Positions 4,121 through 6,712 of a stretch of DNA of 64,000 bases are shown here, piece after piece. The stretch's first letter is position 1; every line of letters begins with the position of its first letter. Source of the DNA: an uncultured Anaerolineaceae bacterium (GTDB lineage: Bacteria; Chloroflexota; Limnocylindria; Limnocylindrales; CSP1-4); the NCBI GenBank assembly GCA_964610835.1, contig CAZSWK010000001.1:23843-87842 (forward strand), given 5' to 3'. Made by a program: the position numbers and the translations under genes. Below the pieces are notes generated by a model. It saw only the letters and a list, made by a program, of their open reading frames with translations. It made no database searches and had not been told where the DNA came from.

Positions 4121-6712
4121 ATGCCAGTCACAACACTGTCGACCGAGTTCGCCGGTCGCACCCTGACCATCGAGACCGGCAAGCTCGCGAGGCTGGCTGG
4201 CGGCTCTGTCACCGTTCGTTTCGGTGACACGATGCTGCTCGGCACGGCCAATCGCTCGGAGCCGCGGCCGGGCCTCGATTTCTTCCCGCTGACGATCGAG
4301 TTCGAGGAGCGCATGTATGCCGCGGGCAAGATCCCGGGCGGCTTCATCAAGCGCGAGTCCAGGCCGTCAGAGGCAGCCATCCTTGCCGCGCGGCTGACCG
4401 ACCGGCCCATCCGGCCGCTGTTCCCCGCGGGCTACAAGGACGATGTCCAGGTCGTGCTCACCGTGCTGTCGACCGACCAGGAGAACGATCCCGACATCAT
4501 TGGCACCATCGCCGCCTCGGCCGCGCTGACGATCAGCGAGATCCCCTTCATGGGACCCGTCGCCGCGGTGCGCGTGGGGCGCATCGACGGTGAACTGGTG
4601 CTCAACCCGACCTTCAGTCAGCTCGCGGACTCAGACCTGGACCTGGTCGTGTCGGGCACGCGCGAGGCGATCATGATGGTCGAGGCCGGAGCCAAGATCG
4701 TGCCTGAAGCGGTCATGGCTGAGGCGATCATGTTCGGCCATCGTTCACTCGGCCCGATCCTCGATCTGCAGGATCAGCTGCGCGAGAAGCTCGGCAAGCC
4801 GAAGCGCCTGCCGTACATCGAACCGGGCACCGATTCGGTGCTCAAGTTCGTCGATGCAATGGGGTCCAACGAGCCGCTCGTGGTCTTCGACGTGGAGACC
4901 ACCAGCCGCGATCCAAAGCAGGGCGCCATCGTCGAGATCGGCGCCGTCAAGGTCGCCAAGGGCAAGATCCAGGACCGTTGGTCGACGCTCGTGAACCCGG
5001 GCGAGGCGATCGTCGGTCATCAGCTGCACGGCATCACCGACGCTGACGTCAAGGATGCGCCGACGCCTGCGCAGGCTGCCGGCCAGTTCATGGAGTGGGC
5101 CGGCGACGCCGTGCTGGTGGGCCACAACGTCGGCTTCGACATCGGCTTCCTCGAGGCGGCGCTCGGTGACGGGCGGCGCATCGAGCAGGGGCACTACCTC
5201 GACACACTGGTGCTCGCCCGTGAGGCGTACGCCGACTCCGACCTGAAGCTCGGGGACCTGGCTCGCTACTTCGAGCTCGAAACCGAACCCAACCACCGGG
5301 CGCTGCCCGACGCCGAGGCGACCGGGCAGTTGCTGCTGCGCTGGGCGGCGGACCTGCCGGGGCGTATCGCGAGCTACCGCGAAGCGGTGGCCGACGCGAT
5401 CCGCGCCCAGCGCAAGGGCCAGACGCTGGAGGACACCACTGCCGCCATCGACGTTGCGCGGTGCAAGGCGCGCTTCTCAAAGGGCCTGGGCGGCCTGTTG
5501 CACAAGAAGGTCGTGCGCGAGCTGGTGCTTGGCGAGGGCCTGCGCATGGACGGGCGCGATCCGGAGACGATCCGGCCCATCTCGGTCGAGGTCGGCCTGC
5601 TGCCGCGGGCACACGGCTCGGGTCTGTTCACCCGCGGCGACACCCAGGCGCTGTCGGTTGCCACGCTGGGACCATCCTCGGACGTCCAGCGCATCGACAC
5701 GATCAGCCCTCATGAGTCCAAGCGTTACCTCCACCACTACAACATGCCGCCCTACTCGACGGGCGAGAACAAGCCCATGCGCGGCCCCGGCCGGCGCGAA
5801 ATCGGCCACGGCGCGCTCGCCGAGCGGGCCCTGGTGCCCGTGCTGCCCGCGCAGGAGGACTTCCCGTACGTCATCCGCGTCGTTTCGGAGTGCGTTACCT
5901 CGAACGGCTCGACGTCGATGGCCTCGACCTGTGGCTCGACATTGGCGCTGATGGATGCCGGCGTGCCGATCAAGGCACCGGTCGCCGGTGCGGCGATGGG
6001 CCTGGTTACCGGCGACGACGGCAAGTTCGTGGTGCTGACCGACATCCTGGGCAAGGAGGACGCCTTCGGCGACATGGACTTCAAGGTGACCGGCACGTCC
6101 GAAGGCGTGACGGCCCTGCAGATGGACATCAAGATCCAGGGCATCAACGAGGACATCATCCGCACCGGCCTGGACAAGGCCCACAGCGCGCGGATGTTCA
6201 TCCTGGACAAGATGCTCGAGGTGATGCCGGAGGCACGGGCCGAGATGAGCGCCTATGCGCCGCGCATCATCACCATCAAGGTCAACCCGGAGAAGATCCG
6301 CGACATCATCGGCAAGGGTGGCGCCACGATCCGCAAGATCCAGGAGGACACCAGTACCGAGATCAACGTCGAGGATGACGGCACGGTCGAGATTGCCGCG
6401 GTCAACTCCGACAACTCACGGGCGGCCATCCAGATGATCGAGAGCCTGACCCGCGAGGTGGAGGTCGGAGGCCTGTACCTCGGCCGGGTGACCCGGATCA
6501 TGGGCTTCGGCGCCTTTGTCGAGATCCTGCCGGGCAAGGAGGGGCTGGTGCGCATCGGCGAGCTGGCCGACTACCACGTGCCCACGGTCGAAGACGTCGT
6601 CTCGGTCGGCGACGAGATCATGGTCGTGGTCATCGAGATCGACCGCCAGGGCCGCGTCAACCTGTCGCGCAAGGCCGCCATGCAGCGCCACCTGGCCAAG
6701 AGTCCCGCCTAA
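4121..6712 (+). CDS. pnp: polyribonucleotide nucleotidyltransferase (PNPase) with an inserted DEDDh exonuclease domain
   Basis: The domains read in this order:
- RNase PH core 1: '[29 protein letters not shown]...[26 protein letters not shown]';
- RNase PH core 2: '[37 protein letters not shown]...FDMDFKV';
- KH domain: '[13 protein letters not shown]';
- S1 domain: '[23 protein letters not shown]'.
The gene follows rpsO. The product is 863 aa, about 130-160 aa longer than canonical bacterial PNPases. Confidence 0.95.
   Translation: [863 protein letters not shown]
4877..5350 (+). other. DEDDh (DnaQ / RNase T / oligoribonuclease-like) 3'-5' exonuclease domain embedded in PNPase
   Basis: All three exonuclease motifs are in frame within pnp: ExoI 'VVFDVETTS' (D257, E259), ExoII '[13 protein letters not shown]' (D340) and ExoIII '[13 protein letters not shown]' (H392, D397). 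PNPase sequence flanks the module on both sides. Confidence 0.8.

Follow-up and report, generated by a model that had tools for sequence, protein, structure and literature searches.

A DEDDh exonuclease domain inserted in the polynucleotide phosphorylase of Candidatus Limnocylindria: a conserved and probably bifunctional enzyme

The gene pnp found in a 64,000-nucleotide stretch of a Chloroflexota genome (contig CAZSWK010000001.1, positions 23,843 to 87,842; hereafter the window, with positions counted from its first letter) encodes a polynucleotide phosphorylase (PNPase) of 863 amino acids (aa) that harbors a complete DEDDh exonuclease domain between its two RNase PH cores. This fused PNPase is real and conserved and, judging from its sequence and from structural models, probably bifunctional, with RNA or single-stranded DNA (ssDNA) as the possible substrate of the added domain. 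The PNPase-DEDDh architecture is fixed across the Limnocylindria lineage, and both catalytic centers are intact and under comparably strong purifying selection.

PNPase is among the best-studied enzymes of RNA decay and, to our knowledge, the order of its domains (PH-alpha-PH-KH-S1) is taken to be the same everywhere, from bacteria to the mitochondria of humans. No published account of a PNPase with an inserted exonuclease was found in the open-access literature (PMC, bioRxiv), in agreement with a preliminary description made from the sequence, which had put the architecture forward as possibly novel. What is new is that an environmentally abundant bacterial class carries a second, chemically distinct 3'-5' exonuclease inside the PNPase plan, and that selection on this inserted exonuclease is as tight as on the catalytic cores.

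Domain Architecture of the Fused PNPase

The pnp gene (4121..6712 on the + strand, stop codon within) is one uninterrupted open reading frame (ORF), the product of which is assigned to TIGR03591 and matches the public protein P0001 at 100%. The preliminary description had read it as a single 863-aa ORF with the order PH-DEDDh-PH-KH-S1, and this reading is confirmed by the ORF list, Pfam and NCBIfam. Regarding Pfam, the protein matches RNase_PH twice (E=1.4e-52), RNase_PH_C twice, KH_1 and S1, and the insert matches PF00929 (RNase_T) over aa 254-404 with E=4.1e-28 and 99.4 bits (cutoff 24), the match extending over profile positions 1-163 out of 164. Regarding NCBIfam, the PNPase equivalog model TIGR03591 (940.5 bits, cutoff 525) and the model NF008805 (935 bits, cutoff 471) both match in two stretches on either side of the insert, and the dnaQ-family model TIGR00573 matches the insert itself with 85.5 bits, above its cutoff of 71.5.

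All domains are encoded on the same + strand. RNase PH core 1 (aa 1-235; 4121..4825), recognized by Pfam RNase_PH and RNase_PH_C, contains the channel loop GGFIKRE at aa 73-79, and its alignment to PNPase chains of the PDB reaches about residue 255. It is followed by an N-terminal connector (aa 236-253; 4826..4879), delimited from the secondary structure of an AlphaFold2 (AF2) model, with a short helix at about aa 238-248 that is probably, according to this model, the first helix of the original PNPase helical domain. The DEDDh 3'-5' exonuclease domain, of DnaQ/PolC type, occupies aa 254-404 (4880..5332) on the basis of PF00929, TIGR00573 and the AF2/Foldseek comparisons; the interval 4877-5350 first proposed for it corresponds to aa 253-410. 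Its motifs are found exactly where they had been placed, namely ExoI (9 residues, aa 254-262, 4880-4906) with D257 and E259, ExoII (13 residues, aa 332-344, 5114-5152) with D340, and ExoIII (13 residues, aa 392-404, 5294-5332) with H392 and D397.

Past the insert, PNPase sequence resumes in frame, as had been noticed at the outset. A helical stalk together with what is left of the PNPase helical domain (aa 405-472; 5333..5536) is defined by AF2 secondary structure with a predicted local distance difference test score (pLDDT) >90, and within it aa 421-460 match TIGR03591 from profile position 259 onward as well as helical-domain residues of PDB PNPases. RNase PH core 2 (aa 473-700; 5537..6220; Pfam RNase_PH at aa 484-616) carries the phosphorolytic site, with RREIGHG at aa 558-564, T598/S599 in SNGSTSMAS and D647/D653/K655 in a 16-residue stretch. 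The RNA-binding domains KH (aa 717-774; Pfam KH_1, E=2e-12) and S1 (aa 780-851; E=7e-16) complete the protein (6269..6673).

The profile search suggested in the preliminary description thus returned RNase_PH twice, RNase_T, KH and S1 as expected, but not the PNPase all-alpha linker PF03726, for which no match was obtained at E<=0.01 in the 863-aa protein. This linker goes undetected because the 151-aa DEDDh domain interrupts it, its alignment to PNPase models being restricted to the C-terminal helices (about aa 421-472). The loss of an intact PF03726 linker is a point of variation that is compatible with orthology to PNPase: the protein belongs to the PNPase family, all the defining features that were tested being present except the intact alpha linker.

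Distribution and Authenticity of the Fusion

A search of 5.8 billion proteins retrieved the identical public protein P0001 and at least 119 more clusters with 79-99% identity and lengths of 862-872 aa. In all 120 top clusters, PF00929 can be found together with the PNPase domains; the sequences originate from NCBI, ENA and JGI, on contigs of up to 1.8 Mb. The named carriers of the fusion all belong to Candidatus Limnocylindria/Limnocylindrales (Chloroflexota), Candidatus Limnocylindria being a class within Chloroflexota in the NCBI taxonomy. The gene is likewise present, with identical junctions, in four species-representative genomes (L001-L004). A genome scan with a single-protein query returned these four fused loci together with unrelated Clostridia DEDDh genes, the peptide patterns proving too specific.

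More distant fusions were sought with an exhaustive HMMER search in which aa 200-480 served as query against 1.84 billion representatives clustered at 50% identity. It yielded one full-length fusion, P0121 (864 aa), for which the sources are Candidatus Limnocylindrus and Chloroflexota metagenome-assembled genomes (MAGs); this Limnocylindrus branch is 69% identical overall, with every motif intact. The remaining junction-spanning matches among the representatives are fragments, and no independent PNPase-DEDDh fusion was found among the best 150 representatives, weaker ones being possible.

Several candidates were rejected. Six apparently divergent fusions (P0124, P0135, P0150, P0158, P0170, and P0173) turned out to be the same fused gene translated with frameshifts, with Arg/Pro-rich stretches read out of frame; error-prone assemblies of this kind swell the apparent diversity of a family among cluster representatives at 50% identity. 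An insert-free variant, P0275 (711 aa, Limnocylindrus cluster), is merely an N-terminal truncation. Other matches in multiple stretches or of PNPase size have different architectures, i.e., P0133 (three DEDDh plus GIY-YIG), P0199 and P0243-type proteins (DinG), P0229 (RecJ), P0240 (VRR-NUC), and P0149 and P0205 (PolC).

The probability that the fusion is an artefact, in which a chimeric join or a missed frameshift unites a pnp and an exonuclease that are truly separate genes, is negligible, since the broken or frameshifted family entries (the six just named) are error-laden copies of the same fused gene that still span the junctions, the reading frame returns to PNPase sequence, composition is uniform over the junctions, and the same in-frame junctions recur in at least 120 independent clusters from varied projects and assemblers and in the four genome loci, which excludes the assembly chimerism that the preliminary description had raised as a concern. 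The insert has a guanine-plus-cytosine content (GC) of 0.68, and of 0.90 at third codon positions (GC3), the same as the remainder of pnp. A recent horizontal gain of the insert was rejected, as its GC and GC3 are those of the host gene and even the 69%-identical branch has it; from the equal composition, the insertion is old.

Conservation and Selection at the Two Active Sites

The five DEDDh residues that had been described as intact (D257, E259, D340, H392, and D397) are invariant in 120 of 120 family sequences. In the same sequences, H335 and F339 of ExoII are invariant and N336 nearly so, and the ExoIII stretch H392-T401 is invariant or nearly invariant. On the phosphorolytic side, T598, S599, D647, D653 and K655 as well as RREIGHG are invariant in 46 family members (alignment A1). 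T598/S599 correspond to S438/S439 of the Escherichia coli PNPase, which are phosphate ligands, and D647/D653/K655 correspond to D486/D492/K494, which are Mn2+ ligands (PMC2723993). From these residues, the DEDDh and the phosphorolytic sites both look functional.

Ratios of nonsynonymous to synonymous substitution rates (dN/dS) were obtained by the Nei-Gojobori method, the window gene having been codon-aligned with L001-L004; with dS of 0.4-1.1 and GC3 of about 0.9, absolute dN/dS values are rough and the contrast between segments is the informative part. For close pairs, dN/dS is 0.07-0.13 in the DEDDh domain, 0.05-0.11 in PH core 1 and 0.08-0.16 in PH core 2; the DEDDh domain reaches 0.25-0.31 in the comparison with the most distant genome. 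The most conserved parts of the protein are S1 (95% identity) and KH (86%). The segments surrounding the insert evolve differently, with dN/dS of 0.5-2 and a mean identity of 45% for the 18-aa N-terminal connector, and dN/dS of 0.35-1.5 and an identity of 53% for the helical stalk (aa 405-460). In the stalk (window 5333-5500), values of 0.8-1.5 are attained against the most distant genome, L004, the adjoining domains being tightly constrained. The stalk behaves like a spacer, constrained in structure and free in sequence.

Sequence and Fold Relatives of the Inserted Domain

The insert belongs to the DEDDh/DnaQ-like superfamily. By sequence and by modeled fold it is of DnaQ/PolC type, falling in the DnaQ-epsilon/PolC/DinG group, and the "RNase T/Orn-like" part of the label initially given to it is inaccurate. 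Its top NCBIfam matches are actinobacterial DEDD exonuclease models of the PRK07883 group (E~1e-41). The PRK07883-family models match the exonuclease domain only, with 104-140 bits, below their full-length cutoffs of 454-1038, and so do the DinG and PolC models, with 107-120 bits for cutoffs of 789-873. No GIY-YIG, helicase or polymerase domain was detected by Pfam in the 863-aa protein, which lies outside the Orn, RNase T, PolC, DinG and PRK07883 full-length families. No Orn or RNase T model occurs among the 25 listed of the 28 NCBIfam matches to the insert.

In a sequence search of the PDB, the insert matches the PolC exonuclease at E~5e-20 (9qpc, 2p1j); RNase T gives a partial match only (E=5e-5) and Orn no match at E<=1e-3. 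Other sequence matches are the DinG exonuclease, Cas2-DEDDh, DnaQ and epsilon. Structure comparison leads to the same grouping. The AF2 model of aa 236-475 (pLDDT 89.6; predicted template modeling score, pTM, 0.84) was compared with the PDB using Foldseek, and the top match is the DinG of Staphylococcus aureus (9ii8, E=3e-11), with E. coli epsilon (2ido) aligning at TM 0.80 and 2.8 A, and PolC (9qpc) at 35% identity and 2.5 A. RNase T and Orn rank by fold below epsilon, PolC, DinG and ExoX, with 18-23% identity, and the fold E-value of Orn and REXO2 is about 1e-6 vs. about 3e-11 for the top epsilon, PolC and DinG structures.

Among free-standing proteins, those nearest to the insert (about 50% identity) have a DEDD+GIY-YIG architecture and come from Longispora, Glycomyces and their metagenomic kin. 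Further near relatives occur as fused or inserted DEDDh domains of PolC, RecJ, VRR-NUC and BRCT proteins, which without exception belong to the DNA side. P0229 (737 aa, Elusimicrobia MAGs) is a RecJ with a DnaQ-type DEDDh (aa 217-370) between DHH and DHHA1; it would join 5'-3' and 3'-5' ssDNA exonucleases in one chain and represents another internal insert of this DEDDh clade. P0133 (1045 aa) is related to the PRK07883 family and is an unusual multi-exonuclease protein: its three DEDDh domains stand in tandem, with GIY-YIG and UVR motifs behind them.

Position of the Insert in the PNPase Fold

In the AF2 model, a helix at aa 238-248 is followed by the alpha/beta DEDDh fold (aa 253-393) and then by helices at aa 394-431, 436-450 and 454-472. 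The ExoIII helix runs on as one 38-residue helix (aa 394-431), and the helices 436-450 and 454-472 correspond in alignment to the C-terminal portion of the helical domain of canonical PNPases. From this order of secondary structures and the alignment of the helices, it follows that the DEDDh domain interrupts the helical linker domain and that a stalk of helices carries it.

In the E. coli PNPase, the helical domain sits on that face of the torus which is opposite S1/KH, and it lines a pore that constitutes a second route to the active site, presumably for nucleoside diphosphates (NDPs) and phosphate (PMC2723993). By analogy, the three DEDDh domains of a trimer would be located on this distal face, opposite S1/KH. 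In a fold search with the full-length model, the 50 best matches listed among solved structures are all canonical PNPases, free of any insert.

Genomic Context of the Fused Gene

The fused gene is the last member of the string rbfA-DHH-truB-ribF-rpsO-pnp, which is conserved in L001-L004. In the window, this string comprises rbfA (212-868), a gene for a 341-aa DHH/DHHA1 protein (865-1890, + strand; Pfam DHH and DHHA1), truB (1796-2785), ribF (2613-3770, + strand; a mechanical ORF of 385 aa with a GTG start) and, 38 nucleotides (nt) upstream of pnp, rpsO for ribosomal protein S15 (3813-4082, + strand; Pfam Ribosomal_S15, E=2e-35). The rpsO-pnp order is kept in L001-L004, and because of this classical housekeeping position the fused gene can be regarded as the orthologue of the ordinary pnp and not as an accessory paralogue.

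The DHH/DHHA1 protein, encoded three genes upstream of pnp, is an NrnA-like candidate nanoRNase, and its gene is also found beside the fused pnp in L001, L002, and L004. Its best NCBIfam match is NrnA, with 62 bits, far under the cutoff of 350, and it may be the nanoRNase of the lineage. Downstream of pnp, a two-component system can be found, as well as a gene of the uracil-DNA glycosylase (UDG) superfamily (10047-10799, + strand) directly followed by that of RNase J (10800-12461, + strand). This UDG-RNase J pair, about 3.3 kb downstream of pnp, is conserved at that place in L001, L002, and L004.

Proposed Function and Alternatives

The reading toward which we lean, with modest confidence, is that of a bifunctional PNPase in which a hydrolytic DEDDh domain acts on the single-stranded substrates or products of the PNPase, RNA being favored. 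A DnaQ/PolC-type DEDDh domain would have been inserted into the helical linker of a housekeeping PNPase in an ancestor of the class Limnocylindria. With the PNPase trimer presumably retained, each ring would display three hydrolytic sites, and the DEDDh domain would catalyze a metal-dependent, phosphate-independent and irreversible 3'-5' hydrolysis of the single-stranded nucleic acid that the PNPase binds or releases, the likeliest substrates being the 3' ends of RNA and the short oligonucleotides that PNPase leaves as its limit products. One particle would thereby combine two chemistries, phosphorolysis generating NDPs and hydrolysis generating nucleoside monophosphates (NMPs). The DEDDh fold in relatives accepts DNA and, in some of them, RNA, and the choice of substrate would be set by tethering to the RNA-binding machine formed by KH, S1 and PH and not by the DEDDh fold. 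RNA substrates are favored because the host enzyme, the operon and the best-conserved domains (S1 and KH) are RNA-directed, and because RNA can be a substrate of DEDD domains in this group: the DinG-type DEDD domain can degrade RNA in RNA-DNA hybrids and, with Mn2+, single-stranded RNA (PMC12525004).

Several points weigh against this reading. All the relatives closest to the insert are DNA-side enzymes (PolC, epsilon, DinG, DEDD+GIY-YIG, the RecJ insert, and the VRR-NUC fusion), so that a DNA substrate is at least as compatible with its ancestry. With a distal-face position, an RNA 3' end entering via S1/KH would meet the phosphorolytic site before the DEDDh site, and the NrnA-like gene of the operon would remove the simplest need for an oligonucleotide-finishing activity. 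Moreover, the full-length AF2 model, built on a shallow alignment of 46 sequences, has a pLDDT of 62.6 with PH core 2 and S1 poorly modeled, and the inter-domain geometry is drawn from the E. coli literature because this model is poor outside the insert.

The ancestry of the insert also speaks for the main alternative, namely that the DEDDh domain is an ssDNA 3'-5' exonuclease that reinforces the DNA-repair role of PNPase instead of RNA decay, by resecting or blunting 3' tails or by removing damaged 3' ends. Its best relatives by sequence and fold are DNA enzymes (the PolC exonuclease at E~5e-20, epsilon, DinG, ExoX, and Cas2-DEDDh), and its nearest free-standing homologues (about 50% identity) are the actinobacterial DEDD+GIY-YIG proteins of the PRK07883 family. 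PNPase itself has ssDNA exonuclease and polymerase activities and takes part in double-strand-break repair, the enzymes of Bacillus subtilis and E. coli degrading and extending ssDNA 3' ends and working with RecN and RecA (PMC3241651); the conserved UDG-superfamily gene downstream of pnp argues weakly in the same direction. However, linkage to repair genes is limited to UDG, the sole pnp seen is in the canonical operon for ribosome and RNA processing, and the RNA-binding KH and S1 are the parts of the protein that have been best preserved. Since DEDDh folds are often not sugar-specific, ancestry leaves the substrate unfixed. A role in DNA-end processing is possible, if rather unlikely.

It appears quite unlikely that the insert is a dedicated nanoRNase, replacing Orn or NrnA and specifically degrading the 2-5 nt products of PNPase. 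A short oligonucleotide remains as a product of PNPase according to PMC11572968, a distal-face insert near the active-site pore (PMC2723993) could capture products as they are released, and Orn is itself a member of the DEDDh superfamily. Yet, at E<1e-3, the insert does not resemble Orn in sequence, it matches RNase T only in part (5e-5), and Orn and REXO2 come low by fold (17-21% identity, with E about 1e-6 vs. about 3e-11). The idea of a "built-in nanoRNase/Orn" activity, suggested in the preliminary description, is further weakened by the NrnA-like DHH/DHHA1 gene that is conserved in the operon alongside the fusion, though this candidate is far below the NrnA equivalog cutoff.

Very unlikely is a catalytically silent module, the DEDDh fold serving only as a structural spacer, as a pad that binds nucleic acid or for the docking of partner proteins. 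Inserted domains do sometimes turn into scaffolds, and the stalk and linker round the insert evolve fast, as would be the case for a spacer, but the five catalytic residues are invariant both in the 120 family sequences and in the 69%-identical Limnocylindrus branch, H335, N336 and F339 of ExoII and the ExoIII stretch are (nearly) invariant as well, and for close pairs the dN/dS of the domain equals that of the catalytic PH cores. In inactivated DEDD domains, these catalytic acidic residues are typically lost.

Comparison with Known Systems

Like canonical PNPases (TIGR03591; 3GCM and 7OGK from E. coli, 1E3H from Streptomyces antibioticus), the Limnocylindria protein has two PH cores, KH, S1, the phosphate and metal ligands and the rpsO-pnp gene order, and its PNPase core is 35-40% identical to solved PNPases. 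It differs from them in being about 150 aa longer, with a complete DEDDh domain in the helical linker and PF03726 undetected.

The PolC proofreading exonuclease, one of the best sequence and fold matches of the insert, is a DEDDh module that is likewise located inside another domain. In P0205 (PolC), the PHP match (346-675) spans the RNase_T match (433-587), and from its location inside the PHP domain of PolC this module can be said to have a record of working as an internal insert. The hosts are different, PolC being a templated DNA polymerase with DNA proofreading and PNPase a phosphorolytic RNA exonuclease and template-independent polymerase. The top matches of the insert come from DinG by fold (N-terminal domain; B. 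subtilis and S. aureus) and from the actinobacterial DEDD+GIY-YIG proteins in NCBIfam, and the DinG of B. subtilis is a 3'-5' ssDNA exonuclease that attacks the RNA of hybrids as well (PMC12525004). Unlike the insert, these are N-terminal domains joined to helicase-like or GIY-YIG modules and not inserts in an RNase.

With regards to RNA decay, the eukaryotic exosome is the same in principle, as it associates a PNPase-like ring and an S1/KH cap with the hydrolytic Rrp6 and Rrp44, Rrp6 being of the DEDD superfamily. It is, however, a non-covalent multi-subunit complex, and Rrp6 is DEDDy/RNase D-type and not DnaQ-type; the likeness would be a case of convergence, i.e., an association without common descent. 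In plants, the Exo9 ring stays phosphorolytic, and phosphorolysis and hydrolysis coexist (PMC5735172; PMC4245959). A comparable association is found in the degradosome of Caulobacter crescentus, where PNPase and the DEDD enzyme RNase D are on an RNase E scaffold (PMC4245959). PNPase is thus brought together with a DEDD-family hydrolytic exoribonuclease in this case too, but via RNase E instead of a covalent fusion, with an RNase D of DEDDy plus HRDC type and with another stoichiometry and geometry.

Pushing the analogy further, the Limnocylindria PNPase could be viewed as a self-contained bacterial counterpart of the exosome holoenzyme, with three covalent hydrolases on the distal (exit) face of a phosphorolytically active ring. 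Such a particle could switch between a reversible phosphorolysis that consumes phosphate and an irreversible hydrolysis that does not need it, or pass substrates from one to the other, and could thereby sustain decay and prevent PNPase-made tails when phosphate is scarce. We regard this proposal as unlikely. If it were true, RNA decay could continue at low phosphate in the oligotrophic waters and soils that Limnocylindria dominate.

Beyond that proposal, the fusion would serve as an experiment of nature on the question posed by the exosome, why hydrolytic nucleases are combined with phosphorolytic rings in cells, and would let the hand-off between phosphorolysis and hydrolysis be studied in a single polypeptide. 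RNA decay may also turn out to be linked to phosphate economy, or PNPase to DNA-end processing. In public databases, the protein is annotated as a plain PNPase or, for most entries at JGI, as "DNA polymerase III epsilon subunit family exonuclease"; the latter label gives a housekeeping RNase a wrong identity and could skew the metabolism reconstructed from Limnocylindria MAGs.

Other Features of the Window

Upstream of pnp, the ribF ORF overlaps truB by about 170 nt and homologous loci align only from about its residue 59; this comparison puts the probable true start of ribF near nt 2787. Scans of the whole 64-kb window for tRNA genes and for Rfam families (gathering threshold) gave no match. 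A 739-aa ORF (32733-34952, + strand) has no Pfam match at E<=1e-5. Also encoded are three large signaling proteins, all of STAND/AAA_16 type, namely an AAA_16-TPR-LuxR regulator of 1054 aa (28556-31720, + strand) and two adenylate/guanylate cyclase-AAA_16 proteins, one of 951 aa (58722-61577, + strand) and one of 1174 aa with N-terminal zinc ribbons (52581-56105, - strand).

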